Below, one piece after another: positions 4,684 through 20,420 of a DNA stretch of 24,000 bases. This DNA comes from Pontiella desulfatans. Lineage in GTDB: Bacteria > Verrucomicrobiota > Kiritimatiellia > Kiritimatiellales > Pontiellaceae. How positions within the stretch are numbered: the stretch's first letter is position 1; each line of letters begins with the position of its first letter. Location: assembly GCF_900890425.1 (NCBI RefSeq), contig NZ_CAAHFG010000004.1:218798-242797 (forward strand). Direction: 5' to 3'. The translations under genes and the position numbers were made by a program. The notes beneath the pieces were generated by a model. It did not search any database and had not been told where the DNA came from. It saw only the letters and a list, made by a program, of their open reading frames with translations.

Positions 4684-6228
4684 CTAGCTCCCTGCCGTTT
4701 TGTGGCGGACTGCGGATTCGTACATCATTTCGTAGTTGGACTTTCCAACCTCGATGTTGGTGCGCTCGCGCAGGGCGGCATCGAGGCGGATCATCTGGAA
4801 CACCCCGTCGGCGAAGTCAAGGCCGGTCTTGGTGCAGCGGAAATAGTTCGCGTCCGCGAGTTTGAATTTAAGGATGAGGCGCAGGAGCCAAGGCGCCTTT
4901 TTCAACAAGCGGTCGACCTGCTCCCGCTTGTCCATGCCGGCGCTGTTTGCAAACCGGGCGTAGACATCGGGGGCCTTGAGCTTGTAGTCGGGATCCTTGA
5001 GCTTGAGGTTGTAGCGTTCCGGAAACTGGTCCATGCGGGAATTGGGCAGGAGGGAGAAGGGGCCGAAGACCACCATGCCCGGCTCCATTTCGACGAGCAG
5101 CTCAATGAGCCGGTCGATATCCGCAACGGTTTCGTTGGGATTGAGCAGCATGAAGCTCCAGCAGGAATGTATGCCGACGCGCTTGCACATGGCCTCGGTT
5201 TCACGCATGACGTCGAGGTGGGGCTTGCCATACATTTTCTGCGTGCCCTCGTTCGCGCTTTCGCCTCCGAAGAAGAGGCTGACGCAACCGCTTTCGTGCG
5301 CTTGGCGGAGGGTCTCCTCCGCATAGTAGGGGCGGAGGCCTTTCCAGGTTCCGGGCCGGGCGTAGCCCGTCCACTCAATCCCTTTGCCGGCAAACAGTTC
5401 GCTGAGCATCTCCATGCGCGAGGTGGGGTAGATGGAGGGATCGGTGACGACCATGTGGCGGAAGCCGAGTTCGTATGCCCGGTTGATTTCCTTTTCGATC
5501 TGGTCGCGCTCCTTCGTTCGCCGTGTTTCATACATGGCGGGCATTTCGCAGAAGGGGCAGCGGTAGGCGCAACCGCGCGAGGTCTCGATGTAGGCCACCG
5601 GAATCAGGCCTTCATTGATTTCGAAGTCGGGGATGGGCAGCAGGCTGAGGTCTTCGAGCACGGCCGGTTTTTTTGAAAGGTGCAGTTTGCCGGAGGAATC
5701 GCGGCAATAGATGCCGTCCGCCGCAGGATCTTCGCGATCAACCATGGCTCCGATTTCATCCGCATTGCCTTCGTGGCGCAGGATGGTTTCCAGGGCAATT
5801 TCGCCCTCGCCATAGACGAGGAAGTCGACGTAATCCGCGAAGCGGCCGCCCGTTTTTTTGGCCTTTGCGAGACGGTAGAAATCCTCCCGGAGGTTCCCGA
5901 GGCTCGGCCCCCCGACGATCACGGTCTTTCCGGGGAGCGTTTCCTTCAGGCGCTGGGTGGCTTCCTGCACGGGGAAGTGGCTGGAGAAACTCAGGTAGAA
6001 CCCGACGGCATCATAGTCGAACGCGGCCTTCAGCAAGCCCGCGACCCCGCCCCTATCCAAATCAAAGATGCCAACGCGGAACCCCTTGTTCTTGAGCCAG
6101 GAACTCAGCACCGGGATGGAAGGTTGCGGAAGATCCCGCACCATGTGGTAGCCATTGATTTCGTCGGCCTTGAAGAAGGCCTCCGCTCCGCCGACTATCG
6201 ATTTGACCAATAAAAGACTGTTCGCCAT
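4684..6228 (-). CDS. B12-binding-domain radical SAM enzyme (class B rSAM), substrate unknown
   Basis: Contains the CxxxCxxC motif (SRGCAYRCPFCEMP), preceded by a Rossmann-like N-terminal domain (VGFYLSF..., TVIVGGP, LVYGEGE) typical of the B12-binding rSAM architecture. GGAGAGG SD upstream. Confidence 0.8.
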   Translation of the reverse strand: MANSLLLVKSIVGGAEAFFKADEINGYHMVRDLPQPSIPVLSSWLKNKGFRVGIFDLDRGGVAGLLKAAFDYDAVGFYLSFSSHFPVQEATQRLKETLPGKTVIVGGPSLGNLREDFYRLAKAKKTGGRFADYVDFLVYGEGEIALETILRHEGNADEIGAMVDREDPAADGIYCRDSSGKLHLSKKPAVLEDLSLLPIPDFEINEGLIPVAYIETSRGCAYRCPFCEMPAMYETRRTKERDQIEKEINRAYELGFRHMVVTDPSIYPTSRMEMLSELFAGKGIEWTGYARPGTWKGLRPYYAEETLRQAHESGCVSLFFGGESANEGTQKMYGKPHLDVMRETEAMCKRVGIHSCWSFMLLNPNETVADIDRLIELLVEMEPGMVVFGPFSLLPNSRMDQFPERYNLKLKDPDYKLKAPDVYARFANSAGMDKREQVDRLLKKAPWLLRLILKFKLADANYFRCTKTGLDFADGVFQMIRLDAALRERTNIEVGKSNYEMMYESAVRHKTAGS

Positions 6229-6279: not shown

Positions 6280-7896
6280 TCATACAAGGTTGTAGCGGCC
6301 GGGCGCGATAATATTGTTGGGATCGAGCACCTTTTTAAGATCGCGAACCGTTCGCCAGAACGGATCGTCTTCCCGGACTGTCCGCTCCATCGAGTTGATA
6401 CCCACCCGATACGGGGGATAGCCCATTTCAGTGTAGCGCGCCTCCATCTCCCTAATGCACTCATGCGCCTTCGCCGCCCGGGCAGCGTCGCGGCGGTCGA
6501 AGGAGAGGCTCACAACGCCCTCCACCGCCTTGGCGTTGATCAGGTTGACCGTTATCCCGGCCTCGAACCCATGCTTGGAAAAGGTTTCGCGCGTGGCCTG
6601 CACAACCTGCCGCACGGCCTCGCCCGTCGCCGGGATGATCGGGCAGCAAAAGAGCAGGCCGCAATTGGAGTGGTCGGGGTCGATCTCGTCCAGGTGCTGG
6701 AAATCGCCGGCCGACCAATAGAAACATTTCAAGGCGACATCCGTGGTTTCGCAGCAGGTGAGTCGATAGATCGGTTCAACCGCCTTGAGCATCATGAGCT
6801 GTGTGCGGACGGCGGGAATAAAGGTCAGCCTTTCCGCAATCCGTTTTGCCACATCCACGACGACATCGGAGAGGAACATGGTTTTGGCGAAGCCCCCGAC
6901 CGCCTTATGGATCTCCTTTTTCGCCAGCTTGAGCTGCCGCTTGGTGCCGAGGACCCCCAGCGAAGTGCTCCATGGGCCAAAGCCGCCCTGCTTCAGCATC
7001 TCGAGGGCCTTGGCCCGGGTCGCCTCGCCTTCCGGCTCGCCGGTTGCGGTCAATTCGTCGTAGAGCAACGGCGCGAGGGTTGCGTAGGTACGTTCGCGGC
7101 TCCCGATATGCGCAATGGTGTTCACCACCCCGCCCGAGCGCAACGCAACCAAGGCATCGATGAGCCGGGGAAAATCTTTTTCGTCGGCAATCTTGATGAT
7201 GGCCGCCATATGGCTTTCGGGTTTCGGCATGAGATCGATGCAAGCCGATGTGACGATGCCGAAGTTGCCTTGCGGAAACAAACCGGAGAGGTCGGGGCCC
7301 ACGCCATAACGGTATAGGTTTTGCGTTTTCGCCCCTTCGATGTGACCGAAACCGGTCTGGATCGTCTCCCCGTTTCCCAGCACCACCGTCAAGTTCGAGA
7401 AGCCTTCGGCACGGGGCTGGAAATAGCCAACGCCGCGGTCCATGGCATTGCCGATCAAGCTGGTGTCGGATGTCGATCCCGTCACGTTGAAGATGAGCGG
7501 AAGGTTGTTTTCCCTGATATGGTCCAACAGTTGCCGTTGCGTTACCCCCGGCTCGACGACCGCGTAGTGGTGCCGCGTGTTTACCTCGATGATCCGGTTC
7601 ATCCCGGCCAAATCGACAATGGCCGCCCCGTCCTTCACCGGAAGGCGCGAGCCCATGCCCCACTGCTTCCCGCAGCTGATCGGATATAGCGGCACCTTGT
7701 ATTCGTTCGCAATGGCCACAATACGCTGCACTTGTTGCTGCGTTGCGGGCTTCAGGACGGCAACAACATCGCGTTTGGAGGCACAGACCGTGCGGGTGTA
7801 GCTGGCCAGCTCCGTTGATTCGTGGATGACGGCATCCGCCCCCAACTCCCGCCTCCAGGTTTGGATGGCGGATTGCACGGAAGTGGGACTCGCCAT
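6280..7896 (-). CDS. FAD-binding oxidoreductase of the VAO/PCMH (vanillyl-alcohol oxidase / 4-cresol dehydrogenase) type
   Basis: The N-terminus has the PCMH-type FAD-binding pattern (VVAVLKPATQQQVQRIVAIANEYKVPLYPIS.G...G). It also carries YGVGPDLSGLFPQGNFGIVT and a C-terminal LDPNNIIAPGRY motif. Its start lies 3 nt after the upstream gene's stop. Confidence 0.75.
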   Translation of the reverse strand: MASPTSVQSAIQTWRRELGADAVIHESTELASYTRTVCASKRDVVAVLKPATQQQVQRIVAIANEYKVPLYPISCGKQWGMGSRLPVKDGAAIVDLAGMNRIIEVNTRHHYAVVEPGVTQRQLLDHIRENNLPLIFNVTGSTSDTSLIGNAMDRGVGYFQPRAEGFSNLTVVLGNGETIQTGFGHIEGAKTQNLYRYGVGPDLSGLFPQGNFGIVTSACIDLMPKPESHMAAIIKIADEKDFPRLIDALVALRSGGVVNTIAHIGSRERTYATLAPLLYDELTATGEPEGEATRAKALEMLKQGGFGPWSTSLGVLGTKRQLKLAKKEIHKAVGGFAKTMFLSDVVVDVAKRIAERLTFIPAVRTQLMMLKAVEPIYRLTCCETTDVALKCFYWSAGDFQHLDEIDPDHSNCGLLFCCPIIPATGEAVRQVVQATRETFSKHGFEAGITVNLINAKAVEGVVSLSFDRRDAARAAKAHECIREMEARYTEMGYPPYRVGINSMERTVREDDPFWRTVRDLKKVLDPNNIIAPGRYNLV

Positions 7897-7899
7897 GGT

Positions 7900-9090
7900 T
7901 TAGGCCTGAACCAGGGAATCGGGGCTGGAGAAGTAGCCCAGGGCCGTATGGGCCTGCGGCACGCGGACGGAAACGATGGTTCCTTCGCCCACCCGGCTTT
8001 CGAACTGGAGCGAGCCGCGATGCTCCTCAATCACCTTTTTCGTAATGAAGAGCCCGAGCCCCGCACCTTTTTCGATGGTTGCCGTGTTATCGAATGGCTC
8101 GAAAATCCAGCGCAGGCTCTGCGCATCCACCCCGCACCCGTTGTCCTTGACCTTGATATCAATATCATTGTTGCTGATTGCAAACAGAACAACGATGCAG
8201 GGGGAAGATTGCTGGTCCAAGGCCTCGACGGCATTGTCGATCAGATTCTGGAGCGCCCGCTTGACCTGCAGCCGCTCACCCAGCATTTCATACTGGTCTT
8301 CAATGCCCTCGACCTGCACCGAGAATGAAATGTCGGAATGGGCCGCGGCATCGCGGAAACAATCGTTGATCAGCTTTGGAAGGTTCAGGCGCTGAAGCTG
8401 CGAGAAATCGAAGCGCCCCAATGCCCGCCAAGACTCCACCAACTCGGCGCAACGCTCAACGTTGGTTTCAATTTGGTCGAGATATTCGTTCATCTCATCG
8501 GAGGTGGATTCCTGCTTTTCCTTCAGCTCATAGTTGAGCAGGTCAAGGTAGCCGCGGATAATCGTGAGCGGATTCCGCAAGTCCCGAACCAGCTCGGAGG
8601 AGGCCGCCCCGAGCGAGGTCAGCTTGTTGGTCTTCCCGACCTCGCGGCTGAGCGACTGCGTCATCTTGTTCAGCTCTTCCTGGGCCTGTTTCTTCCGCGA
8701 ATGCAGCTTTGAGCGATCAACATATTTTTTAACAACCGCCTGGATTTCGTCGGTATCGAACGGTTTCTGGAGATAGTCGTTGGCGCCAAAGCGGATCGCC
8801 TGCTGGGCCGTGTCCAGGTCGCCGTAGCCGGTCAGCATAACAATGGAGACATTGGGGTTGATTGCACGGATTTCCTGCAACCCCTCGATGCCGCTCTTTT
8901 CCGGCATCCGGATATCCATGATCACGAGATCGGGTTCCTGCTCCCGGAGCAGCTCGACCCCGGCGTCCACGCGATCGGCCAGAAACATGTCGTAATCGTA
9001 CTTGAGCACCATCCGCAGGCTTTCGCGCGGGCCGCGCTCGTCGTCGATCACCAACACCGTTCCCAACTTTTCCTTCGTCTCCGCAATCAT
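7900..9090 (-). CDS. Receiver (REC) plus histidine-kinase-like hybrid lacking the phospho-acceptor His
   Basis: The REC domain is canonical: VIDDE, LVIMDIRMP, MLTG, QKPF. The HATPase_c domain is intact: N box QNLIDNAVEA, DNGCGV, IFEPF, GAGLGL. The H-box reads SSELVRDLRNPLT, with Arg (CGG, 8584-8586) where His is expected. Confidence 0.8.
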   Translation of the reverse strand: MIAETKEKLGTVLVIDDERGPRESLRMVLKYDYDMFLADRVDAGVELLREQEPDLVIMDIRMPEKSGIEGLQEIRAINPNVSIVMLTGYGDLDTAQQAIRFGANDYLQKPFDTDEIQAVVKKYVDRSKLHSRKKQAQEELNKMTQSLSREVGKTNKLTSLGAASSELVRDLRNPLTIIRGYLDLLNYELKEKQESTSDEMNEYLDQIETNVERCAELVESWRALGRFDFSQLQRLNLPKLINDCFRDAAAHSDISFSVQVEGIEDQYEMLGERLQVKRALQNLIDNAVEALDQQSSPCIVVLFAISNNDIDIKVKDNGCGVDAQSLRWIFEPFDNTATIEKGAGLGLFITKKVIEEHRGSLQFESRVGEGTIVSVRVPQAHTALGYFSSPDSLVQA

Positions 9091-9099: not shown

Positions 9100-10314
9100 C
9101 TAAAAAGACAAGGAATATGTCACAGATGCCAGGTTGGAATCAACATCATAAGTGCCGTTCGCCGTTTCCCGGTCATCGTAGATGCTATAGGCATAACCCA
9201 AGTCCAGCGTGTGCATGCCCAGGGAGTAGCCAATACCGAAACTGAGGATGTGGCGATCAAGGTCGGGGAGCAAAGGCGAAGCTGAGCTATCGGGAATGGG
9301 AGACGGCAACCAGGTATAGCCCGAACGCACAGCCAAACCATCGATGATTTCCCAGTTGACGCCGGTGTTGATGGAGTAGGAATCGTCCCAGTTGTTTTCC
9401 AAGACGAGCTGGCTTCCTCCCGCATTGATTGTTTGCGTCTTGTTCACCGACCACTCCAACCACTCGAACAGAGCCTCCAGCTGCACGTTTCCGGGAAGCG
9501 CGATACCGTATCCGATTCCAATGGTGTTCGGATATTTTAGCGTGGTCTCGAACTCGCCGGTGTTGGGGTAGGAAGCCGCAAAGTCGCCTTTGTATTTCAC
9601 ATCCACGCGGCTGCGGTAGGTCAGCGCCACGCGCTGGTTTTCCGTTGGCAACCAGGTCAGGCCCACGTTGCCGCCAATGCCCCAGCCATCGCCGGAGCCC
9701 TCCACATCATATGGAGACATCGGATCGGCAACCGGATAAAGATTTGGAAAGAGGGCTTTCATGGAAAAATCCGAATAGAAAATATCGCCGCCGATGCCGA
9801 AATAGACAGAATCATGGAGCTTGAAGGAAGCCGTTGGATTAAAGTTCACCAAAAGAACCTCGGCCTCGTAGGGAACCGGCTCGGTTACACCAGTCATGGG
9901 GTTGACTAGGTCTGTCTTGTTCCAGGATACACTCTGGCCATACGGGGTGCTGATGCCTAAACCGACCACCAGCCCCTTCACGCCAACAGGCTGCGAGTAG
10001 AAGAGGTTCGGCAAGACATTCCAAGGATCATCCGACTTCAATTCATAGCCCGGAGCGGGTTCATAGGTGATTTCCGACTGGGCAAACGTTGCCGCCAACA
10101 CCAAAGAATGATCTTCTTGCATGGCCAGGTTGGCCGGATTGTAGAAGATGGCCGAAGCATCGTCCACAAACGCCGAGTGGGCGCTGGATTTGCCGAGACC
10201 CTCCGCGGTCGGCGGTGGATTCCGATAGCCATCCGCGTAAACATCGCCGACCATGGCGATAGGCAACGCACTGAGCAAAACCATCCTACACAAGCGCTTA
10301 CTATTTGTTTTCAT
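9100..10314 (-). CDS. FadL/TodX/OmpP1-family outer-membrane channel for hydrophobic compounds
   Basis: I start it at the internal ATG 10312-10314 (MKTNSKRL...), which has a GGGAGAAG SD and a signal peptide (LLSALPIAMVGDVYA/DG). It carries the FadL-type N-terminal motif (DDASAIFYNPANLA). It is a Gly/Tyr-rich barrel ending in ...TYSLSF. Confidence 0.75.
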   Translation of the reverse strand: MKTNSKRLCRMVLLSALPIAMVGDVYADGYRNPPPTAEGLGKSSAHSAFVDDASAIFYNPANLAMQEDHSLVLAATFAQSEITYEPAPGYELKSDDPWNVLPNLFYSQPVGVKGLVVGLGISTPYGQSVSWNKTDLVNPMTGVTEPVPYEAEVLLVNFNPTASFKLHDSVYFGIGGDIFYSDFSMKALFPNLYPVADPMSPYDVEGSGDGWGIGGNVGLTWLPTENQRVALTYRSRVDVKYKGDFAASYPNTGEFETTLKYPNTIGIGYGIALPGNVQLEALFEWLEWSVNKTQTINAGGSQLVLENNWDDSYSINTGVNWEIIDGLAVRSGYTWLPSPIPDSSASPLLPDLDRHILSFGIGYSLGMHTLDLGYAYSIYDDRETANGTYDVDSNLASVTYSLSF

Positions 10315-10361
10315 ATCTTCTCCCTTAGTTCGGCTAGTTGAATTTGAACCACTCAAGTGAT

Positions 10362-10377
10362 AGCAACAGACGTGCCA
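10362..10377 (-). promoter_or_regulatory. Sigma54 (-24/-12) promoter for the FadL-like operon
   Basis: The minus strand reads TGGCAC-GTCTG-TTGCT, an exact TGGCAC-N5-TTGC consensus with GG-N10-GC spacing. The predicted TSS is near 10351, giving a leader of about 37 nt before the ATG. Confidence 0.75.
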
Positions 10378-10419
10378 CTTGTCAGTAAGTTTTTTCGTCC
10401 ATAGGTTGTGTAATAATTC

Positions 10420-10448
10420 TTGATATATACAACATATTGACATTTAAT
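10420..10448 (+). promoter_or_regulatory. Sigma70-like promoter for the ketosynthase/kinase operon
   Basis: TTGATA-N17-TTTAAT in a very AT-rich divergent intergenic region. An alternative TTGACA (10437-10442) is also present. Confidence 0.4.
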
Positions 10449-10449
10449 G

Positions 10450-10465
10450 TGTACAAATTTGTACA
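10450..10465. promoter_or_regulatory. 16-bp perfect palindrome TGTACAAATTTGTACA (TGT-N10-ACA), candidate enhancer/operator
   Basis: Perfect dyad. Its centre lies about 105 nt upstream of the predicted sigma54 TSS on the minus strand. It lies immediately downstream of the plus-strand -10 element. Confidence 0.55.
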
Positions 10466-10540
10466 GGAATGGGTTGCGGGCTTTTTAAGCCGCTTGGTTT
10501 CCAGAGTCTGGAATACCAATTTCAACGGGGGTTCAGGCGC

Positions 10541-11776
10541 GTGATCGGCAGAAACAGAGTAGTCATTACCGGCTTGGGGGTGCTCGCCGCCAACGGCATT
10601 GGCAAGGAGGCCTTCTGGAAGTCCCTCCTAGCCGGCGAGTCCGGCATCGGCCCCATCACCCAGTTCGATGCGAGTGAAATACCTTGGCAGATTGCTGGAG
10701 AAATCGACGGCTTTTCACCAACTGATTTCATTGATCCGAGTCTTAAGCCCAAAAGACAAAGTAGAAATACACAGATTGCCGCAGCAGCCACCGTCATGGC
10801 ACTTGAAGACGCAAAACTGTCCATGGATTCCTTGAAAAAGGTCGAACCCGTGCAAATCACACTTGGCATTAGCCTTGGGGGGCTCGATTTGGTGGAACAA
10901 CACACACGAAGGCTTGTCGAAAAGGGAGCCATGAAGGGACTGCCGACGGTTTCCGCGTGTGTGCACATTATCGCGTCGAGTTTCATCTCCGCCCTCCTCA
11001 AAGTGAAGACACAGATCAATGTTGTTTCGAACAGTTGCACAGGCGGACTTGATGCAATCGCCGCTGGAGCCGCAGCGATTAGACGCGGCGAAGTGGAATT
11101 GGCGATAGTAGGAGGAACCGATGCTGTCATCATACCTTCGGTTGTTACAGGATTAGGTTTTGCTGGCATGTTGACCGACAGTCACGATAATCCTAAAACC
11201 ATTAGCCGACCCTTTGATCTGACAAGGTGCGGAGGAGTGCTGGCGGAAGGCACGGGTATCGTGATCCTTGAAAGCCTAAATCATGCTCGAGAACGTGGAG
11301 CCCGGCAATATGCAGAAATCAGTGCCCATGGAACAGCAAGTGGCATCAACATGCAATTGCATGAGGGACTGGAAACCAGCATGCGGCGGGCAATGAGCAA
11401 TGCAGGTCTCTATCCACAAGACATATCCAACATCAACGCCCATGGCACCAGCGATCCGGATTTGGATATTGCGGAAACCGTGGCGATAAAGAATGTTCTT
11501 GGGAGCCACGCTTATAATATCCCCATCAACTCCATTAAAGGATCAACGGGAAATCCTTTAGCCGCAGGCGGTGCCCTCCAGGTCATTTCCAGCTGCCTTT
11601 CAATGGAGGTCGGCATAATACCTCCGACAACGAACCTTAGAGTACCTGATCCCGATTGTGATCTTGATTATGTCCCCGAAACACCCCGCCACTTTGAACC
11701 TTCTGTTACGTTGATTAATAGCCATGGCACAGGCGGAGTGAACAGTTCTATGGTCTTGGAGAAAATTAAACAGTGA
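10541..11776 (+). CDS. FabF/FabB-type beta-ketoacyl synthase, orphan, with a Cys-His-Asn active-site pattern
   Basis: Motifs: RVVITGLGV, active-site NSCTGG, NAHGTS, and SIKGSTGNPLAAGG (Asn where FabF has His). I prefer the GTG at 10541 (GGGGG about 10 nt upstream; N-terminus MIGRNRVVITG). The ORF track's ATG at 10469 is the alternative. The stop overlaps the next gene's start (GTGA). Confidence 0.8.
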   Translation: MIGRNRVVITGLGVLAANGIGKEAFWKSLLAGESGIGPITQFDASEIPWQIAGEIDGFSPTDFIDPSLKPKRQSRNTQIAAAATVMALEDAKLSMDSLKKVEPVQITLGISLGGLDLVEQHTRRLVEKGAMKGLPTVSACVHIIASSFISALLKVKTQINVVSNSCTGGLDAIAAGAAAIRRGEVELAIVGGTDAVIIPSVVTGLGFAGMLTDSHDNPKTISRPFDLTRCGGVLAEGTGIVILESLNHARERGARQYAEISAHGTASGINMQLHEGLETSMRRAMSNAGLYPQDISNINAHGTSDPDLDIAETVAIKNVLGSHAYNIPINSIKGSTGNPLAAGGALQVISSCLSMEVGIIPPTTNLRVPDPDCDLDYVPETPRHFEPSVTLINSHGTGGVNSSMVLEKIKQ

Positions 11777-14283
11777 TCCTAATCACACTACTTCTTATCT
11801 TGGCTATTGTGGTCAACCTTGGACTGGGCACTACGGTATACCTCACCAATCGGGCAAGAAAAGCGAACCAAAGTTATCTGGTTGCAACAATCTTTATGTC
11901 ACTGTGGCTCAGTGCCAATCTTATCATTCTCCATTCCACATCCGCCCACCTAGCTCACATAGGCATCGATGCCGCATCGGCTTTATCTGTTTGCATTCCA
12001 ACAACATTCCAGTTGCTTCGCCTTACGATCAAGTTTCCCGAATACTCTTGGAGATCGGTGCTGACCAGGTGCCATAAGCAAATTCTTTTCAATATTATTA
12101 CCGTTGCAGTCTGCTTCACGCCCTCATTCAGCCAATCAGTCATTCTTCCCGAACCAGGCGAACCGGGGCTGGTTCAACCAGTATATGGACCAGCCTTTCT
12201 CGTTTTCCTCGTATACATGCTTTCTTCCATAGCAGTGCTTGGATGCGGGGTTTTTAAAGACAGAAAACAAATTAGGGGAACACAACGACTAGAACTGGAA
12301 TTCCTCCTATTCGCCTGTCTGGCAGGTCTTAGCGTAGGCATCTTCCTAGGGACGGTTGTTTCACTGATCTCAAAATCATACAACTCAATCCCAATTGCAA
12401 ATTCTGCAAGCGTTTTCACAGTATCCATCATCGTTGCGTATGGCATAGCCATGCATAAAATCCTGACCGTTTCGACGCTCTTACGCAGATTCACCGCCTA
12501 TGCCCTGATCACGGTCTACCTAAGTGTGGTATATTTTATAACAGCAAGCATAATGCGATTCGCCTGTGAAGCACTTGAAATATCCATGACATTCCCCATT
12601 CATTTAACTTCGGCTCTTGCCGTAGCTTTTTCCATGCTTCCGGCCAGATCACGAATGCAGAAAGCAACAGACCTTCTATTTGGAGGAACAAACTACTTTA
12701 ATGTCCAGGACACGGTTCGAAAAGCCAGCGACATCTTCCAATCCGTTACAACAATAACCTCTCTGCTTGATCATTTCTCAAACTTACTCGTTAGTGCTTT
12801 CGGAACGGAGCGCGTTATAATTCTTACCGCTACCGACGGTGGATATAAGCAACAATACCCCTACCCTCTTGATAATGCTGTTTTCTTTTCTGAAAATAGT
12901 GCCTTGGTAGGAATGCTGGAAAGAAACCGAGATCCCGTCTGTGCAGAAAGCCTGCTACGTATCCGGGAGACCTCGGAAATCCATGACACGATCAAGAATC
13001 TCAAATCTTCTGATGCAAACATAGCGACAGGTGTTTTCTCAAAATCAAAATTGAATGGCATTGTTTTATTCGGAACGCGACACAAAGGCCGTATTTACGA
13101 CAAAACCGAGCAGGATGCGATTCAAATCCTCTGCAACCAATTTGCCGTGGCCTTTGAAAACGCCCAGCTTTATACCGAAATGCAGGATAGCAAAATCCGC
13201 AACGAAATCATGCTCGATCAGCTCGTGAGTGGTGTGATTGTTGCCAGCCCTGACCGGAAAATCACCCTGTTCAACCATGAAGCACAACGCATAACCGGCA
13301 TCGTCGAGTCGGAAGCGATCGGCCAGAACATCGACATTCTTCCCAAAGCCATTGCCATGGCTCTGGAAGAAACGTTGGAAGACAAAACCGGGCTCCGCAA
13401 TATCGATGCATCCCTCTATTCACCGGAAGTGAGGGAGGAAAGCGTAAGCATCCGGATGGGTTCCGCCTTCCTGTTCGGCCACGACGATAAACCCATGGGA
13501 GCCTTGCTCGTTTTCACCGACACTACCGAGTTGAAGGGCCTGGAAGAACAAGTCCGGCGCTCCGACCAGTTATCCAGCGTCGGTACGCTGGCCGCCGGCA
13601 TGGCGCATGAAATCAAGAATCCGCTCGTCACCATCAAAACCTTCACCCAGCTGCTGCCCAAACGATACGACGACGAAGATTTCAGACAGGAGTTTTCCAG
13701 CCTGGTTGCCCACGAAGTCTCGCGTATCGACGGCATCGTGAACGAGCTGCTCAGTTTCTCCAAACCGGCCAAACCGCACCTGGTCCCGATGAAACTCCAG
13801 CATACGATCGATCAGATCCTCAAGCTGACCCATGAGCAGATGGTGCAAAGCAACATCCAGCTCAAGAACAAATGCACTGCCGAAAACGACATGATCTTCG
13901 GCGATGCCAAGTTGCTTTCCCAAGCATTGATCAACCTCAACCTGAATGCGGCAGAGGCCATTGGCGAGGGCGGGACGATCACCGTTGGAACCCTCAATTG
14001 CACCTACCGGTTTGCCAATGGCGACTCTCCGGAGCATGCCAAAACCAAGCACTGCATCCGGCTGCAGATCACCGACACCGGCAAGGGCATCGAGCGCAAG
14101 GATCTCCAAAAAATCTTCGATCCATTCTTCACTAGCAAGAGCGAGGGCACCGGCATGGGGCTTTCCGTCGCCCATGGCATCATCAACGAACATCACGGGG
14201 TGATCGAGGTGGAGAGCGAACCCGGACTTGGCACCACGTTCTACGTCTACATCCCCTTGCTTGAGGAGGGTATTGCTTCATGA
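11773..14283 (+). CDS. Polytopic-membrane sensor histidine kinase (about 8-9 TM helices, GAF, PAS, HisKA, HATPase_c)
   Basis: By eye there are eight to nine hydrophobic helices in aa 1-290. A GAF-like segment ends ...FAVAFENAQLY. A PAS segment follows (VSGVIVASPDRKITLFNHEAQRITG). The H-box is MAHEIKNPL (His codon 13606-13608). N/G boxes: NLNLNAAEA, DTGKGI, GTGMGL. GGAGA SD lies 10 nt before the GTG. Confidence 0.85.
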   Translation: MILITLLLILAIVVNLGLGTTVYLTNRARKANQSYLVATIFMSLWLSANLIILHSTSAHLAHIGIDAASALSVCIPTTFQLLRLTIKFPEYSWRSVLTRCHKQILFNIITVAVCFTPSFSQSVILPEPGEPGLVQPVYGPAFLVFLVYMLSSIAVLGCGVFKDRKQIRGTQRLELEFLLFACLAGLSVGIFLGTVVSLISKSYNSIPIANSASVFTVSIIVAYGIAMHKILTVSTLLRRFTAYALITVYLSVVYFITASIMRFACEALEISMTFPIHLTSALAVAFSMLPARSRMQKATDLLFGGTNYFNVQDTVRKASDIFQSVTTITSLLDHFSNLLVSAFGTERVIILTATDGGYKQQYPYPLDNAVFFSENSALVGMLERNRDPVCAESLLRIRETSEIHDTIKNLKSSDANIATGVFSKSKLNGIVLFGTRHKGRIYDKTEQDAIQILCNQFAVAFENAQLYTEMQDSKIRNEIMLDQLVSGVIVASPDRKITLFNHEAQRITGIVESEAIGQNIDILPKAIAMALEETLEDKTGLRNIDASLYSPEVREESVSIRMGSAFLFGHDDKPMGALLVFTDTTELKGLEEQVRRSDQLSSVGTLAAGMAHEIKNPLVTIKTFTQLLPKRYDDEDFRQEFSSLVAHEVSRIDGIVNELLSFSKPAKPHLVPMKLQHTIDQILKLTHEQMVQSNIQLKNKCTAENDMIFGDAKLLSQALINLNLNAAEAIGEGGTITVGTLNCTYRFANGDSPEHAKTKHCIRLQITDTGKGIERKDLQKIFDPFFTSKSEGTGMGLSVAHGIINEHHGVIEVESEPGLGTTFYVYIPLLEEGIAS

Positions 14284-16271
14284 AAACCCTACCGTCATGC
14301 ATCCTATACAGCCGCGACGACGAACTCACCGGACGCCTGATCCGCATCTCGACCTCCGTCGTCGCCCTCCAGCTTATCGAGGAACCGGTCGACCTTGAAC
14401 AGTGGATCGCCCAATTTGGCGATACGGTGCTGCTTGCCGATCTACGGGCAACCAACTGCCTCGACATGCTTGCATCCATCCGGAAGGAAAAGCCGGCAAC
14501 CATCATCATTCCCATTGGAGCCGACCGGTCCGACCCAATGCTCGCGGTTGAGTGGCTCGAGCCCTTTGCCACCTTATCGCTCGAACCCGACCGCCGCGAA
14601 TTCCAGACCCTGCTAAAACAGGCCGTCGAATGCCTGGCCCTCCGCCAGAAAAACAAGGTGCTCGAGGAGGAGCTGGCGACCTTGAACGCCCGCAAGGTCG
14701 AGCAACGCCCCCAACCGCGCACCCTCTTCTCCGCCCCGCTGCAGAACTTTTCCAAAGCACAGCGGAATTTCGACAACATCGACATGCTGTTCGACAGTGT
14801 TGTCGAAGGCCTTGTTGCGACGGCACGCGTATCGCGCGCGGGCATTTTCATCAAGCCCGATTCGGGCGACGCATATCTCTACAAGGCCGGAACCCGCTGC
14901 CTGGCAACCACGGAAAAACTGCGAGTCCGGCCGGACAGTCCGTTCGTGCGCTGGCTGGAAATGAACACGCATCTGGTATCGCGCAAGACGCTCGAAAACG
15001 TTGCCGACCCCCAGGAACGCGCAATGCTCAAGCAGATGCTCGACTCGCTCGGCGCGGAAATCATCATCCCCCTATACGCAACCGGATGCATCAAGGGCTG
15101 GATCTTCGTCGGCCAGCGCTCCACCGGCATCCCGTTCGATATCGCCGACCTCGAAGACATGACCGGCCTGGCCGACCACATTTCCACCACGCTCGAAAAG
15201 GCGCTCAAGTACGAGGAAACCGCACTCCAGAAAGCCCTCGCCGAAACGGTGCTGCACACCATTCCGTTCGGCATCATCGCCTGCGACGAACATGCCATCC
15301 TGCGCTGGTTCAACACCACCGCGCGCGAAATCCTCAAACCGCAAAGCGAAGTCGTCATCGGCCAGCGCGCCGAAGTGCTGGGCAGCCGGATTGCAGACAT
15401 GCTCCGAAGCGCCGTCGGCGGCCAGCACATGCCCTGCACCAAGGAATGGACCGACAACCGCACCAAACTAACACTCGCCGCAGAAACACACTGCCTAACG
15501 GATGGCGGCTCCTGCGTCGGCGCCATGGTCATGCTACGCGATGTCACTGGCGTTAAGCTGCTCAAGGAAAAGGAAGAGCAGGTTGAGCGCGCCACCTTCT
15601 GGAACGAACTCGCCTCGAGCATGAGCCACGAAATCCGCAACCCCCTCGTGGCCATCAAGACCTTCTCGCAGTTGCTGCCTCAGCGATACGAAGATCCCGA
15701 TTTCCGCGCCGAATTCAGCAAACAGGTCACCACCGAGGTCGACCAACTCAACCAAATCATCGACAAGATCAACGAGTTCGCCAATCCGCCCAAACCCATC
15801 TTCCAACCCCTCGATATCCGCAAGCCCATCGAGCACGCCGTCACACGGATCCAATCTGAACTCAACCACGACAATCTCAAAATCCACCTCTCGGCCGACG
15901 AAACCGCCCTCCAGATCAATGGCGACACCACATCCATGGAGGAATGCATCTACCACCTGCTCAAGAACGCGGCGGAAAACCTCGCCAACAAACCCGGCTC
16001 GCGCATCAACGTCACGGTCAAAGGGCGCTCCCCCGAGAAGGGATCCGGGAACATCTACATCATGGTCACCGACAACGGCAGCGGGATCGACCCTTCGTTG
16101 CGCGACAAGATATTCTCGCCCTTCATCACCATCAAGGCGCTCGGCTTCGGCCTCGGCCTGCCGATCGCCAAACGCGCGGTCATCGACCACAACGGACAGA
16201 TGGACATCGAAAGCAGCTCCGGCGGAACCACTGTATCCATCACCCTCCCCGCCTCGGAGGAACAGGAATGA
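14280..16271 (+). CDS. Cytoplasmic sensor histidine kinase (degenerate receiver-like N-terminus, GAF, PAS, HisKA, HATPase_c), paralog of the preceding kinase
   Basis: ATGA overlap with the upstream stop, and a GAGGAGGG SD. The H-box MSHEIRNPLVAIKTFSQLLPQRYEDPDFRAEFS (His codon 15627-15629) is near-identical in pattern to HK1. N/G boxes: LLKNAAENL, DNGSGI, GFGLGL. No TM segments. Confidence 0.85.
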   Translation: MKTLPSCILYSRDDELTGRLIRISTSVVALQLIEEPVDLEQWIAQFGDTVLLADLRATNCLDMLASIRKEKPATIIIPIGADRSDPMLAVEWLEPFATLSLEPDRREFQTLLKQAVECLALRQKNKVLEEELATLNARKVEQRPQPRTLFSAPLQNFSKAQRNFDNIDMLFDSVVEGLVATARVSRAGIFIKPDSGDAYLYKAGTRCLATTEKLRVRPDSPFVRWLEMNTHLVSRKTLENVADPQERAMLKQMLDSLGAEIIIPLYATGCIKGWIFVGQRSTGIPFDIADLEDMTGLADHISTTLEKALKYEETALQKALAETVLHTIPFGIIACDEHAILRWFNTTAREILKPQSEVVIGQRAEVLGSRIADMLRSAVGGQHMPCTKEWTDNRTKLTLAAETHCLTDGGSCVGAMVMLRDVTGVKLLKEKEEQVERATFWNELASSMSHEIRNPLVAIKTFSQLLPQRYEDPDFRAEFSKQVTTEVDQLNQIIDKINEFANPPKPIFQPLDIRKPIEHAVTRIQSELNHDNLKIHLSADETALQINGDTTSMEECIYHLLKNAAENLANKPGSRINVTVKGRSPEKGSGNIYIMVTDNGSGIDPSLRDKIFSPFITIKALGFGLGLPIAKRAVIDHNGQMDIESSSGGTTVSITLPASEEQE

Positions 16272-16480
16272 AAACGCCCAAGGATATCCAGAATGCAGAG
16301 GGCCCAATCAACCTCGAAGAAGCCGTCGGGGATTTCGAACGCAACCTGATCGAGCAGGCGCTCGAAAAATGCAACGGCATCCAAACCCGGGCCGCGGAAC
16401 ACCTTGGCACCACCCGCCGCATCCTCCGCTACCGCATGGACAAACTCGGCATCAGGCCCCAGCGCGGCAAACATCCATAA
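16268..16480 (+). CDS. Stand-alone Fis/NtrC-type helix-turn-helix protein (70 aa)
   Basis: ATGA overlap with the HK2 stop. The sequence FERNLIEQALEKCNGIQTRAAEHLGTTRRILRYRMDKLGI matches the C-terminal HTH_8 pattern of NtrC-family activators. It lies in the same frame as listed ORF 15944-16480, but the upstream part of that ORF overlaps HK2. Confidence 0.7.
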   Translation: MKTPKDIQNAEGPINLEEAVGDFERNLIEQALEKCNGIQTRAAEHLGTTRRILRYRMDKLGIRPQRGKHP

Positions 16481-16541: not shown

Positions 16542-17027
16542 ATGGAAAACCTTTTAGCCGCCGTTGATTTCTCACAAACCACCGATACCGTCATTGAACA
16601 GGCCACACTCCTCGCCAATGCGCTCGGCTCAAAGCTCTGGATCCTGCACGTCACTTCCGACGAAACGCAGGCCATGGTCTACGAAGCCACCCAGGTCACC
16701 GGCTACTCCCCCGAATTCGTCAGCATGCCCGGCGATGTCCAGCTGGCCCGCGACCTCAGCGCCGAGGAAATCAAACGCGAGCACAAGGAGCTGCAGGGCA
16801 TCTCCTCCAAACTCCGGGCAGAGGGCGTCGATGCCCAGGCCCTGTTGCTCAAGGGCGATGCCGCCAAAACCATCGTCGAAAAGGCGAAGGAACTCCGGTC
16901 TGGAATAATCATCCTCGGCTCGCACGGCCATGGCCTGTTGCATAAGGCCTTGCTGGGCAGCGTCTCCGAGGCCGTGATGCACCACGCCAAATGCAACGTC
17001 CTCGTCGTTCCTCGGGCCGGGAAATAG
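16542..17027 (+). CDS. Universal stress protein (UspA family)
   Basis: 161 aa with an N-terminal LLAAVDFS and the C-terminal ATP-binding-type motif GSHGHGLLHKALLGSVSEAVMHHAKCNVLVV. Confidence 0.85.
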   Translation: MENLLAAVDFSQTTDTVIEQATLLANALGSKLWILHVTSDETQAMVYEATQVTGYSPEFVSMPGDVQLARDLSAEEIKREHKELQGISSKLRAEGVDAQALLLKGDAAKTIVEKAKELRSGIIILGSHGHGLLHKALLGSVSEAVMHHAKCNVLVVPRAGK

Positions 17028-17126
17028 GCCTCTCTACCATGCAATTCGTATGGCGTATGGCTTGACCTCCCCTTCGGTCGAGCTACTCTCCACACGCATT
17101 ACGAAATCACAAGACGAAGGCCTCCC

Positions 17127-18125
17127 ATGTTGCAGACCATCATAGAAAAAGCCGTTGCCGGAACCGGATGCACGCCTGAAGACGCTCCTGGGCTGATCGA
17201 AGCCAACGAAGCCGACCTCTTTGCCGGCGCCACGCAAATCCGCGAAGCCCACTTCGGCAACACCATCCAGCTCTGCTGCATCATCAACGCCAAAAGCGGC
17301 AAGTGCGACATGGACTGCCGCTTCTGCTCCCAGAGCGGGCACAACTCCACCGAAATCGAAGTCTACCCCTTCATGGAAACCGTGGATCTACAAAACCAAA
17401 TCCACGAAAACATCAAGAACGGCGACCGCATGTGCGGCGTCGTCACCAGCGGCGGAAAACTCTCAACCGCGGAACTCAAGCAACTCGCCGAAACCGTCAA
17501 GCGGATTGGCGGCGGCGAACAGGCTCCCATCTGCGGCTCCCTCGGACGGCTCCCCCCCGAAGACCTCTCCATGCTCAAGCAATCCGGCGTCACCCGCTTC
17601 CACCACAACCTCGAAACCTCCGAAAACCACTATCCGCAAATCTGCTCCACCCAGGAATGGTCGCAACGGCTCGAAACCGTCAAAGCCGCCCAGGCCGCCG
17701 GACTCAAGGTGTGCAGTGGCGGGCTCTTCGGCCTCGGCGAAAGCTGGCACGATCGCATCGACCTCGCCCTCACCCTGCGCGAACTCGGCGTCGATAGCGT
17801 CCCCATCAACTTCCTCTACGCCCATCCCGGCACCCCCTTGAAAGACCGGCAGCAACTCTCCCCGGCGGAAGCCCTGCGCATCATCGCCCTCTACCGCTTC
17901 CTCTTGCCAACCGTCACCCTGCGCATCTGCGGCGGACGCTCCCACATTCTCGCCCATCGCCAGGCCGACATCTTCGCCGCCGGAGCCAACGGCCTCATGA
18001 CCGGCAACTACCTCACCGTCGCCGGCAGCCAATACGAATCCGACCTCCAATTGATCCAATCCCTCGGCCTCGAAATCGCCCCCCCCCAATCCCCGCCTCC
18101 GTCACGCCCGCGCTCACGATCGTGA
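17127..18125 (+). CDS. bioB: Biotin synthase
   Basis: Radical SAM motif NAKSGKCDMDCRFCSQS. BioB signature FHHNLETS...Y..I. Cys residues are positioned for the auxiliary cluster (CGVV, ICGSLG, VCSGG). There is an unusual Pro/Ser/Arg-rich C-terminal tail after a C9 run. Confidence 0.85.
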   Translation: MLQTIIEKAVAGTGCTPEDAPGLIEANEADLFAGATQIREAHFGNTIQLCCIINAKSGKCDMDCRFCSQSGHNSTEIEVYPFMETVDLQNQIHENIKNGDRMCGVVTSGGKLSTAELKQLAETVKRIGGGEQAPICGSLGRLPPEDLSMLKQSGVTRFHHNLETSENHYPQICSTQEWSQRLETVKAAQAAGLKVCSGGLFGLGESWHDRIDLALTLRELGVDSVPINFLYAHPGTPLKDRQQLSPAEALRIIALYRFLLPTVTLRICGGRSHILAHRQADIFAAGANGLMTGNYLTVAGSQYESDLQLIQSLGLEIAPPQSPPPSRPRSRS

Positions 18126-18198
18126 GCACAGACGTGCCCCCCCTTTCGCCTGCCGAAATCGTTAGACACGGCTAAAAAAGCGAGTAGTCTGAAACACC

Positions 18199-19422
18199 AT
18201 GGAATCACCATCCATAGTACCGAGCGATGTCATCCTCGAAAGCATATCCGACGGCGTGTTCACGGTTGGAAACGACTGGCGCATCGCCTCGTTCAACCGG
18301 GCGGCGGAACAGATAACCGGCGTTCCGCGCAAGGAGGCCATTGGACGGCTCTGCTCGGAAGTATTCCGCTCCAGCATGTGTGAAGGCGCCTGCGCACTGC
18401 GCAAAACCCTCGAGACCGGCCAACCGCTCATTGCCCACGCCTGCTACATCGTCAACGCCGATGGCGAGCGCATCCCCGCAAGCGTCTCGACCGCCGTGCT
18501 CAAAGATGAAGCCGGCAACATGATCGGGGGGGCCGAAACCTTCCGCGACCTCAGCGAAATCGAAACCCTGCGCAAACAAATCTCCGGCCGCTACACCCTT
18601 GGCGACCTCATCAGCCACAGCCACGCCATGCAGCCGGTCTACGAGATGACCTCCTCCGTCGCCAATTCCAACATCACCGCCCTCATCCATGGCGAAACCG
18701 GCACCGGCAAGGAGTTGCTCGCCAGAGCCATCCACGGCATGAGCCCCCGCTCCGCCAAACCCTTCGTCGCCATCAACTGTGCCGCCCTGCCCGACACCCT
18801 GCTCGAATCCGAACTCTTCGGCTATAAAAAGGGCGCCTTCACCGGCGCCGTGCAGGATCGCGAAGGCAGATTTGCCCAGGCCAGGGACGGCACGGTCTTC
18901 CTTGATGAAATCGGCGAAATCAGCCCCGCCCTGCAGGTGCGGCTGCTTCGCGTCTTGCAGGAACACACCTACGAACCGCTCGGCAGCAACGAAACCCGGC
19001 GCACCGAGGCCCGCATCATTGCCGCCACGCACCGCGATCTCTCCGCGTTGGTTGAAAGCGGCGAATTTCGCGAAGACCTCTTCTACCGCATCAATGTCAT
19101 CCGCATCGACCTCCCCCCCCTGCGCAGCCGCAAGGAAGACCTTCCCCTGCTCATCGACCACTTCATTGAACGCTTCAACCGCATTCACAACAAAAACATT
19201 GCCGGGCTATCCAACGGGGCCAACTCGTTGCTCATGGCCCACGACTGGCCGGGCAATGTCCGCGAGCTCGAAAACATCGTCGAGCGCGCCTTTGTCCTAT
19301 GCAATGGCACGCAGATTGAAATACGCCACCTCCCCCCGGTGGGCAGCCGAGCCCCCGCCACCCCGAACATCTACCCGACATCGGCACCGCCCGCCGTAGC
19401 GCCGAAGCCCGGACTATTTTGA
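18199..19422 (+). CDS. Sigma54-dependent enhancer-binding protein (PAS plus AAA+), reading frame interrupted before its HTH
   Basis: PAS domain with four Cys. Walker A GETGTGKE, sigma54-contact loop GAFTGA, and [10 protein letters not shown]. The ORF ends in a low-complexity Pro/Ala tail at TGA 19420-19422 with no DNA-binding domain. Confidence 0.85.
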
Positions 19423-19535
19423 AAACCCTCGAAAAAAACAACTTCAACCGCCTTGCCACCGCCCACGAACTCGGTATCCACAAAACCACCCTATACCGAA
19501 AAATTAAGGCACTCGGACTCTCCCTTCCCCACTAA
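19320..19535 (+). other. Displaced Fis-type HTH coding segment of the sigma54 activator (different frame)
   Basis: The frame whose codons start at multiples of 3 reads ...[48 protein letters not shown], the expected EBP C-terminal HTH. It is open from 19320 to TAA 19533-19535. It has no start codon of its own. Confidence 0.75.
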
Positions 19536-19536
19536 G

Positions 19537-19580
19537 GTATATCATCCAACCACCACGATCGTGGTGGTTGGATGATATAC
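19537..19580 (+). terminator. 44-bp perfect palindrome (22-bp arms, no spacer), probable terminator of the activator gene
   Basis: GTATATCATCCAACCACCACGA/TCGTGGTGGTTGGATGATATAC, verified base by base. It starts 2 nt after the HTH-frame stop and is followed by TTT only. Confidence 0.5.
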
Positions 19581-19594
19581 TTTCATGCGGACTT

Positions 19595-19641: not shown

Positions 19642-19731
19642 TACCCTCCCACCTCATCGCCCCCACACGTTGTATTACGCAAGAGGCTTTCTGTTATGGA
19701 CTTGCGAATCCGATGCCCCGGCATCCGCCGC

Positions 19732-20114: not shown

Positions 20115-20128
20115 CAAGGAGGCATAAC

Positions 20129-20419: not shown

Positions 20420-20420
20420 A

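Follow-up and report, generated by a model that had tools for sequence, protein, structure and literature searches.

Two-component systems are the main sensing devices of bacteria, and their accessory inputs are mostly binding proteins or transporters. What, then, could a protein with the fold of a fatty-acid condensing enzyme be doing in one operon with two histidine kinases? This question is raised by a stretch of 24,000 nucleotides of Pontiella desulfatans (contig NZ_CAAHFG010000004.1, positions 218,798 to 242,797), hereafter referred to as the window. Its ketosynthase-like protein, named here KS, is 100% identical over 411 amino acids to the NCBI protein of this member of the phylum Kiritimatiellota. 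An initial annotation, made by reading the letters of the window, had described a cassette in which KS, two kinases and a small helix-turn-helix (HTH) protein diverge from an operon driven by a sigma54 promoter, and had supposed that KS makes a lipid-like ligand for the adjacent kinase. Here, we typed the window genes by Pfam and NCBIfam scans of the large open reading frames (ORFs) and compared them with those of related genomes. All the items listed in that annotation are present in the sequence, and its interpretation is partly supported. The window would represent the Pontiellaceae version of a conserved sigma54-linked multi-kinase module of Kiritimatiellota, Verrucomicrobiota and relatives. 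The parts of this module are familiar (NtrB/NtrC-type kinases and activator, FadL, the FabF fold, HTH_8), but their combination is not. Full-text searching of the literature found no description of a KS-kinase-sigma54 module, and no kinase system with a partner of its own derived from a ketosynthase is known to us.

Conserved pairing of KS with two histidine kinases

On the plus strand, the KS gene (10541-11776) is followed by the genes of the histidine kinases HK1 (11773-14283) and HK2 (14280-16271) and of a 70-residue HTH_8 protein (16268-16480), and then by those of a universal stress protein, a BioB-like enzyme and a PAS-AAA+ activator. The divergent operon on the minus strand encodes, in this order, a FadL/TodX-family channel (9100-10314), a REC-HisKA-HATPase protein referred to as the REC-kinase (7900-9090), a flavoprotein of the vanillyl-alcohol oxidase (VAO) type (6280-7896), a B12-binding radical S-adenosylmethionine (SAM) enzyme (4684-6228), a PlsY-like protein (4011-4601) and a FeeM-type GNAT/class-V aminotransferase (2388-4010). 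The plus-strand genes are joined by three 4-nt start/stop overlaps, GTGA at 11773-11776, ATGA at 14280-14283 and ATGA at 16268-16271, each of which was verified in the sequence, and the reading frames show a KS predicted to be co-translated with HK1 and HK2.

A scan of one genome per species found at least 581 relatives of KS, of which the best 80 were examined. These 80 come from Kiritimatiellales/Pontiellaceae, from 'Lentisphaerae' metagenome-assembled genomes, or from Verrucomicrobiota, mainly Chthoniobacterales. Residue counts given below refer to 83 orthologues of KS, 69 of the REC-kinase, 61 of HK1 and 60 of HK2, and those of the sigma54 element to 75 loci. The divergent arrangement of the REC-kinase and KS-HK1-HK2 was seen for every KS homologue looked up, from 67% down to 47% identity. 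HK1 comes after KS in 65 of the 66 loci with enough flanking sequence and HK2 is present in its place in 61 of 63, while the REC-kinase is divergent within 3.3 kb of KS in 57 of 64 loci, most of the others having intervening genes. The junctions are conserved as well: that of KS and HK1 measures -4, -1, 0 or +1 nt in 64 of 75 loci, and that of HK1 and HK2 measures -4 nt in 61 of 64. The module also occurs in a Ratteibacteria genome (locus L087), in which rpoN adjoins the REC-kinase, and in two more metagenome contigs (L088 and L089). Since synteny and junctions are conserved across these lineages, the comparison indicates that the pairing of KS with the kinases is ancient and under selection. 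The initial annotation had named a gene pairing that is not kept in related genomes as evidence against a cassette, and the counts above decisively contradict such a loss. The cassette is thus a conserved unit, kept in related genomes and apparently undescribed.

Two loci have a variant arrangement. The REC-kinase gene is found after HK1, on the same strand, in L072, and a regulator gene directly follows HK1 in L074; HK2 is missing from both.

The active site of KS

The KS gene starts at GTG 10541 and not at ATG 10469, as judged from the 411-residue NCBI protein and from the GTG and GGGG ribosome-binding site, which are kept in 11 relatives. Its product has the N- and C-terminal ketoacyl-synt domains of Pfam and is publicly annotated as 3-oxoacyl-acyl carrier protein (ACP) synthase II. 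The AlphaFold model (pLDDT 87) has the thiolase fold of the ketoacyl-ACP synthases (KAS) I/II and aligns in Foldseek with FabF of Bacillus subtilis (4ls8) with a TM score of 0.93; sequence identity to FabF is about 36%. KS shares with FabF/KAS II the dimer-type architecture, the active-site Cys, the Lys and the Asp/Glu network. However, the active site has diverged. The residues at the catalytic positions are Cys166, His301, Lys333 and Asn338. Alignment with B. subtilis FabF shows that the Cys and first His of the Cys-His-His triad are kept, while the second His is replaced by Asn (KGSTGNPLAAGG), and the gate Phe of the GFGG motif is replaced by Thr (NSHGTGGVN). Asn is found at the position of the second His in 107 of the 120 closest database proteins; among the orthologues, 78 have Asn at position 338, 4 have Ser and 1 has Cys. 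Such Asn-type proteins make up a wide clade for which there is no curated family name. His301, equivalent to His303 of FabF, is Tyr in 47 of the 83 orthologues, which are those of the Chthoniobacterales-type loci, and the gate Phe is kept in just 9. Cys166, Lys333, Asp309 and Glu312 are invariant.

Could KS be a housekeeping FabF that lies beside an unrelated two-component system by chance? Its fold, its identity to FabF and its annotation as synthase II would agree with this. However, KS scores under all FabF equivalog cutoffs (342.6 against 493.75 bits for TIGR03150 and 325.7 against 387 for NF005589), a catalytic His and the gate Phe are replaced, and its gene overlaps HK1 at start and stop across phyla. 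Neither acpP nor fab genes adjoin KS in any of about 85 loci, the partner being the kinase pair instead. Within the 24 kb of the window itself, no ACP, ketoreductase, dehydratase or acyltransferase gene accompanies KS, as judged by Pfam on the large ORFs and by a six-frame scan for the ACP Ser motif, in agreement with the initial annotation. On motif, score and context in the loci compared we reject the housekeeping identity, which is hardly credible, and a canonical fabF beside acpP would be expected elsewhere in the P. desulfatans genome. The description of KS as FabF-like holds for the fold and fails for the second catalytic His and the gate. A 75-residue ORF that precedes KS in L087 was considered as an ACP and dismissed, having neither an ACP motif nor homologues.

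An ordinary condensing activity of KS is also unlikely, both catalytic His residues being replaced in the 47 Tyr-type orthologues. Across the module, the acyl-accepting Cys and the structural network are kept; the decarboxylation and condensation machinery is not. From this pattern we infer that the common role of KS would be acyl binding or transfer tied to signalling, and not chain elongation.

In a model that follows the initial annotation, KS makes, or helps to make, a hydrophobic signal that is sensed by the polytopic HK1, and the sigma54 operon tailors this signal and moves it across the outer membrane in a feedback loop. Precedents exist in CqsA/CqsS-LuxO of Vibrio and LqsA/LqsS/LqsT/LqsR of Legionella, where an enzyme gene adjoins that of a polytopic sensor kinase and paired paralogous kinases serve one pathway. 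The module resembles them in the position of the enzyme gene and in its two paralogous kinases, and a sigma54 activator is the output in Vibrio. However, CqsA and LqsA are PLP-dependent acyl-CoA transferases and their kinases lack GAF and PAS domains, while KS has the thiolase fold, its partners have GAF and PAS domains, and its catalytic residues are eroded in most lineages. In favour of a signal synthase, every lineage couples a synthase-like gene to that of a polytopic kinase, and KS keeps Cys-His-Asn in the FadL-containing lineages, including the window. Against it, the Tyr-type orthologues have lost both catalytic His with the same synteny, no ACP, thioesterase or release enzyme was found in any locus, and a single condensation on substrates of fatty-acid synthesis would give an ordinary intermediate. 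PpyS and DarB are ketosynthase-type signal synthases, but they are FabH-type and are partnered by LuxR solos and not by kinases; the analogy drawn with them in the initial annotation is not supported. We consider a signal synthase rather unlikely.

The GC content is 0.46-0.51 over KS and the membrane domain of HK1 (10500-13000), compared with 0.58 for the window. Pontiella agarivorans has a similar dip (0.45-0.47 against 0.51). Since the dip is shared, it is gene-specific and gives no sign of recent horizontal transfer, which was rejected as its cause.

Histidine kinases and the reduced regulator

HK1 comprises a HisKA_7TM membrane domain, a GAF-like region and PAS, HisKA and HATPase domains. 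As the initial annotation had noticed, it is a polytopic kinase: about seven hydrophobic segments are visible, and the PAS, HisKA and HATPase domains are found by Pfam. The N-terminal part was typed as HisKA_7TM in 11 of 15 orthologues, and the membrane domain is kept, with an invariant H-box, in the 61 orthologues. The public annotation, a protein of 610 residues called 'Sensor protein ZraS', omits about 226 N-terminal residues (11773-12450), which form this conserved domain. A homology search with the membrane domain gave 13 matches and no additional lineages. HK2 consists of a receiver-like N-terminal region with an invariant Asp54, followed by GAF, PAS, HisKA and HATPase domains. It is a paralogue of HK1 (28% identity over 461 residues, E 2e-48) over GAF-PAS-HisKA-HATPase, and its H-box is invariant in the 60 orthologues. 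The invariant Asp aligns with the receiver Asp of the REC-kinase, with a hhalign probability of just 59%. HK1 and HK2 show themselves to be paralogous histidine kinases, predicted to be catalytically intact.

The REC-kinase, encoded on the minus strand, joins a receiver (REC) to the dimerization and histidine phosphotransfer (DHp) and catalytic ATP-binding (CA) domains. The receiver residues Asp59, Thr87 and Lys109 are intact, and the equivalent Asp, Thr and Lys are invariant in the column statistics of the 69 orthologues. The HATPase_c domain (76 bits in Pfam) has visible N, G1 and G2 boxes. The H-box, SSELVRDLRNPL, has Arg at the position of the phospho-acceptor His. Among the orthologues, this residue is His in 56 and Arg in 13, and the 13 Arg-type proteins form one Kiritimatiellales/Pontiellaceae subclade that includes the window. 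A kinase without His, as first described, is therefore correct for the window but is a Pontiellaceae-specific state. The protein resembles DivL-type kinases, in which the DHp-CA architecture is kept and the phospho-acceptor His is replaced; it differs from them in having Arg and not Tyr, in its intact N-terminal receiver, and in the restriction of the loss to 13 of 69 orthologues in a single subclade. In NCBIfam, the kinase core comes closest to AtoS and the HTH to AtoC, with scores far under the cutoffs. An assignment to the PEP-CTERM PrsK/PrsR system was rejected, the kinase core alone giving a match (89 against 300 bits).

The 70-residue protein encoded after HK2 (16268-16480, plus strand) contains a C-terminal HTH_8 domain (Pfam E 1.3e-14) and nothing else; the AAA+ sigma54-interaction domain is missing, and the start of the gene overlaps the HK2 stop by 4 nt. 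A close match to it is the C-terminal end of the full-length regulator that L002 has in the equivalent slot. Three forms occupy this slot. In 11 loci, there is a complete REC-AAA+-HTH_8 regulator of 452-479 residues. L020 (10916-11524) has an intermediate form of 202 residues, REC and HTH_8, from which AAA+ has been deleted. Seven Pontiellaceae loci, including the window, have an HTH-only protein of 68-76 residues. The slot is empty in several other loci and in Chthoniobacterales. The protein, described at first as a bare HTH, is on this comparison not a designed stand-alone regulator. It is what remains of an NtrC-type sigma54 activator, namely the C-terminal DNA-binding domain, and would have arisen inside its own operon. 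Fis is a stand-alone HTH_8 protein that is thought to derive from the C-terminal domain of NtrC. The window protein is likewise a small HTH_8-only descendant of an NtrC-type regulator, but it is not an orthologue of Fis (25 against 122 bits); its origin is independent, with an intermediate visible in L020.

The truncated regulators all co-occur with an Arg-type REC-kinase, and the full-length regulators all co-occur with His. This co-loss suggests that transfer from the REC-kinase to the regulator was the final phosphotransfer step, an inference that is not tight. An NtrC-type output of this kind parallels LuxO, as a signal synthase would have it. The module shares with NtrB/NtrC-type systems such as AtoS/AtoC and ZraS/ZraR its PAS-HisKA-HATPase kinases and, in related lineages, an operon-encoded REC-AAA+-HTH_8 activator together with a GG-N10-GC promoter and an upstream dyad. 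It differs from them in having three kinases and a KS-like protein, and in the window by the reduction of the activator to its HTH.

Other forms of the regulator and its neighbours were observed. The activator of L087 (Ratteibacteria; 2800-4017 and 13565-14755) is REC-AAA+ without HTH, a mirror image of the Pontiella form, and HK2 is split there into two genes. A REC-GAF-GGDEF-REC-HD-GYP protein adjoins the regulator in L025, L029 and L084 (~17100-19700, minus strand), and L087 has a REC-HD-GYP protein there; this hints at a link of the module with cyclic di-GMP in L025, L029 and L084.

The intergenic region

KS and fadL are separated by 226 bp. The fadL gene starts at ATG 10314, directly before its signal peptide, and the 447-residue ORF is over-extended. 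About 50 nt before this start lies the sigma54 -24/-12 promoter reported in the initial annotation, TGGCACgtctgTTGC (10363-10377, minus strand), an exact match to TGGCAC-N5-TTGC. By our own arithmetic, with 10 fixed bases, about 0.05 exact matches are expected by chance in the 48 kb of both strands, and two are seen. YGGCAC-N5-TWGCT is kept upstream of the divergent operon in most of the 75 loci, including those without a local activator; the mean score is 11.95, compared with 10.2 for shuffled sequences, and consensus and spacing are also seen in the aligned intergenic regions. A divergent promoter predicted to be of sigma54 type is thus supported across the family.

The alignment of 11 Pontiellaceae intergenic regions reveals a near-invariant block of 49 bp (10401-10449, plus strand). 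It contains a candidate sigma70 promoter of the KS operon, with the -35 element TTGATA at 10420-10425, a 17-nt spacer and the -10 element TTTAAT at 10443-10448 (plus strand). Directly after this putative -10 element comes a perfect palindrome of 16 bp, TGTACAAATTTGTACA (10450-10465), about 80 bp upstream of the -24 element. Such a distance is a normal position for an enhancer. The dyad TGTACA-N4-TGTACA is present in 7 of 7 HTH-only loci and also in L011, L048 and L074; among the loci with full regulators, two bear it. It is degenerate in L013, L036 and L069; the HTH gene is missing from L013 and L036, and the contig of L069 is too short to judge. The palindrome is likely an operator or upstream activating sequence for the HTH_8 protein. 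Since the 70-residue protein has no AAA+ domain, it cannot activate sigma54, and since the dyad abuts the candidate -10 element of the KS operon, the protein most likely represses its own operon or acts architecturally, like Fis.

Five loci of Chthoniobacterales (L054, L058, L063, L064 and L075) have a second sigma54-like element, TGGCACgcaagGTGCA, on the plus strand and facing the KS operon, and both divergent units may be sigma54-dependent there. An Rfam scan of the window gave no matches.

The divergent operon and its cargo

The first gene behind the sigma54 promoter encodes an outer-membrane channel with a signal peptide, which belongs to the FadL/TodX family. Toluene_X matches with E 2e-44 (152 bits against 29.7), while the FadL equivalog is not reached (98 against 585). 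FadL is present in 26 of 64 loci, in the lineages that match those with the first KS His retained. The flavoprotein (minus strand; FAD_binding_4 in Pfam) is predicted to be of the 4-phenol-oxidising kind of the VAO/p-cresol methylhydroxylase (PCMH) type, the class of FeeG and CndG. Among proteins of solved structure, it is closest to p-cresol methylhydroxylase (E 3e-67), vanillyl-alcohol oxidase and eugenol oxidase, and it is present in at least 19 loci. Its identification as an alkyl-DHAP synthase of ether-lipid synthesis was rejected (E 2e-6 for AGPS, compared with 3e-67 for PCMH). The B12-binding radical SAM protein (minus strand; Radical_SAM and B12-binding in Pfam) completes the four divergent genes of the initial annotation, each of which has its match in Pfam or in the sequence. 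It is a window-specific insertion, absent in P. agarivorans and without a close homologue in other loci, and must be removed from the module.

Two genes at the end of the operon had been overlooked. One encodes a paralogue of the acyltransferase PlsY (4011-4601, minus strand; G3P_acyltransf E 9e-37) that remains under the PlsY cutoff of NCBIfam (111 against 137) and is kept in Pontiellaceae loci. The other, the last gene of the operon in Pontiellaceae, encodes a FeeM-family GNAT fused to a class-V aminotransferase (2388-4010, minus strand; FeeM and Aminotran_5). Its FeeM part matches PF21926 with 41.5 bits over a cutoff of 27 and has a strong match in P. agarivorans too, and its aminotransferase part is PhnW-like, under cutoff. 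The FeeM-like and PlsY-like genes are neighbours in L001, L007, L008, L013, L016, L026, L036 and L066. They give the divergent operon a specific chemical theme. FeeM-type synthases convert acyl-ACP to N-acyl-tyrosines, which FeeG and CndG, of the 4-phenol-oxidising VAO/PCMH subgroup, oxidatively decarboxylate (PMC8762209, PMC11350588, PMC11959600). N-acyl-tyrosines have also been reported from Planctomycetota (PMC12479983). As in this fee-type pathway, a FeeM-family GNAT and a flavoprotein predicted to be 4-phenol-oxidising are found here in one operon; the differences are that the GNAT is fused to an aminotransferase and that the flavoprotein lacks one phenolate-binding Tyr. Its likeness to FeeG and CndG is by shared subgroup, the closest solved relatives being those named above. 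From the two genes and the literature on both, it is plausible that the Pontiellaceae operon makes N-acyl-aromatic-amino-acid lipids, which is a lead and not a result.

The cargo beside the REC-kinase differs between lineages. Kiritimatiellales have FadL and the VAO-type oxidase, to which Pontiellaceae add the PlsY-like and FeeM-like genes. In some Verrucomicrobiota, FadL is accompanied by an O-methyltransferase and a B12-binding radical SAM protein of a different family; Chthoniobacterales have an 800-residue LanB_N-like protein and a ParA-like ATPase. With regard to a signal synthase, the tailoring genes of FadL-type loci (VAO-type oxidase, O-methyltransferase, B12-binding radical SAM) would be in its favour, as would a type III polyketide synthase operon of srsABC-like arrangement that adjoins the module in one locus. 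However, Chthoniobacterales lack FadL and tailoring genes. This explanation fits the FadL-type lineages but not the majority without both His residues.

A catabolic regulon similar to TodX/TodST or AtoSC was also considered, in which the kinases would sense an external hydrophobic or phenolic substrate, FadL would import it, the flavoprotein would oxidise it, and KS would carry out a metabolic, for example thiolase-like, step. A FadL/TodX channel and a flavoprotein like p-cresol methylhydroxylase behind a sigma54 promoter, the co-occurrence of FadL with an NtrC-type regulator, and AtoS and AtoC as top NCBIfam matches all suggest it. However, the scores of AtoS and AtoC are those of distant models, the core of KS and three kinases is also kept in loci without FadL and the oxidase, no other catabolic genes were found, and the downstream genes of Pontiellaceae are biosynthetic in type (the FeeM-like synthase and the PlsY-like acyltransferase). 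We regard a catabolic regulon as improbable. Alternatively, HK1 could sense the bilayer through its 7TM domain, in the manner of DesK, with KS and the PlsY-like and FeeM-like proteins as regulated lipid-modifying effectors. HK1 is polytopic without a large periplasmic domain, the Pontiellaceae cargo is lipid-related, and FabF-type enzymes tune acyl-chain composition. This homeostatic role is quite improbable in our judgement: KS is encoded in the regulator operon and not in the one under sigma54 control, the gene order stays as the catalytic His residues of KS decay, and the effector genes are entirely different between lineages. Each of these two explanations accounts for some parts of the window and leaves the invariant core unexplained.

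Particular cargo was observed in two sets of loci. In L004, L005, L060 and ~40 other Chthoniobacterales, the protein of ~800 residues matches Lant_dehydr_N partially (E up to 8e-16) and follows the REC-kinase together with a ParA/MinD-like ATPase; a fructose-bisphosphate aldolase gene comes after HK2 in those loci. In L089 (15068-17260, minus strand), the regulator is directly followed by genes of a type III polyketide synthase, an FAD monooxygenase and a methyltransferase in the srsABC-like arrangement; a link of the module to alkylresorcinols was set aside as an anecdote of L089 only.

A proposed mechanism

Our preferred reading, which we hold tentatively as plausible but short of probable, is that of a sigma54-linked multi-kinase relay with the KS-like protein as an input device, the last step of which has been dismantled in the window while the HTH is kept as a DNA-binding factor. 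In the ancestral circuit, phosphate would pass from HK1 and HK2 to the receiver of the REC-kinase, the kinase half of which would phosphorylate the NtrC-type activator encoded after HK2. The activator, bound to the intergenic dyad, would then fire the sigma54 promoter. In Pontiellaceae, the final step would be lost, with Arg in place of the REC-kinase His and the activator cut to a 70-residue HTH protein that may still bind the palindrome at 10450-10465 and would be unable to activate sigma54. The sigma54 promoter of the window would then have to rely on an activator encoded elsewhere. The least certain step is that of KS, which would act as an input device and not as an enzyme of fatty-acid elongation. 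Acyl-ACP or acyl-CoA could donate an acyl chain to its invariant Cys, and whether KS is loaded or not could be relayed to the kinases. The expression of the divergent lipid operon would thereby be tied to acyl or lipid supply. With FadL, the FeeG-like flavoprotein and the PlsY-like and FeeM-like proteins, the cargo of the window would make or remodel envelope lipids of the N-acyl-aromatic-amino-acid (phenolic) type. The statements on architecture and evolution are much firmer than that on the role of KS.

Several points weigh against this relay. The KS of the window keeps the first His and so has a Cys-His-Asn triad, the type found in FabH and chalcone synthases, with which it could be a working condensing enzyme, and even the Tyr and Asn residues of other orthologues might polarise a thioester. 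For a physical contact between KS and the kinases, which would be needed for the relay of its state, the basis is translational coupling only. The order of phosphotransfer rests on an imperfect co-loss: L009, L016 and all Chthoniobacterales have kept the REC-kinase His without a local regulator. No cognate AAA+ activator of the window promoter was found in the module of the window. As for the chemistry, the flavoprotein keeps the Tyr-Arg phenolate motif but has Met in place of Tyr95 of PCMH, one Tyr of the triad, and in a strict anaerobe it would need an electron acceptor. The FeeM-like and PlsY-like genes are restricted to Pontiellaceae and so have little bearing on a role common to the family.

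A bolder form of the relay is possible but doubtful. KS would be a new input module of histidine kinases, a thiolase-fold 'trigger' acylated on its invariant Cys, which would report acyl-ACP or lipid status, or a hydrophobic ligand imported by FadL, directly to two co-translated kinases. With a Pontiellaceae sigma54 operon that makes phenolic lipids of the N-acyl-tyrosine type, the system as a whole would form a loop based on lipids, autoregulatory or quorum-like, that is particular to Kiritimatiellota, Verrucomicrobiota and related phyla.

Genes downstream of the module

The universal stress protein (16542-17027, plus strand; Usp in Pfam) is encoded after HK2 or the HTH gene in 13 loci and is a Pontiellaceae neighbour that could be a candidate member of the module. 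It is followed by a BioB-like radical SAM protein (17127-18125, plus strand; Radical_SAM and BATS), and a BioB-like gene lies directly after HK2 in L016. The gene of the PAS-AAA+ sigma54 activator (18199-19535, plus strand) has a stop at 19422, and an intact HTH_8 domain continues in a different frame (19359-19535; Pfam E 1.5e-10). The orthologues of L012 and L020 have 446-447 residues, and the break is either a frameshift that makes a pseudogene or an assembly error in a C-rich stretch. The second exact sigma54 promoter of the window, TGGCACcgttgTTGC (19732-19746, plus strand), directly precedes a gene set at 19761-23834 that comprises two Nitro_FeMo-Co-family genes, an ARMT1-like gene, two MinD/4Fe-4S P-loop ATPase genes and a NifU-like gene. 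The PAS-AAA+ activator probably regulates this set, which does not belong to the KS cassette. As the missing activator of the module, the PAS-AAA+ protein is an unlikely candidate: its gene precedes its own exact sigma54 promoter and gene set, is frameshifted and is absent in P. agarivorans.

Significance

The module proteins are now labelled 'FabF', 'ZraS' or 'GlnL', and the annotation of HK1 is 226 residues too short. The KS family offers a natural series for the passage from enzyme to regulator, with His-His, His-Asn and Tyr-Asn active sites, and the slot after HK2 offers another for the decay of an NtrC-type activator to a Fis-like protein (REC-AAA+-HTH, REC-HTH, HTH). The pair of FeeM-like and FeeG-like proteins is a concrete lead to N-acyl-amino-acid lipids in Kiritimatiellota. 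In at least 80 species from environmentally abundant and little-studied phyla, a ketosynthase-derived protein permanently tied to two kinases would, if true, be a new control link between lipid metabolism and genes. The association of KS with the kinases points to an undescribed link between lipid chemistry and signalling.

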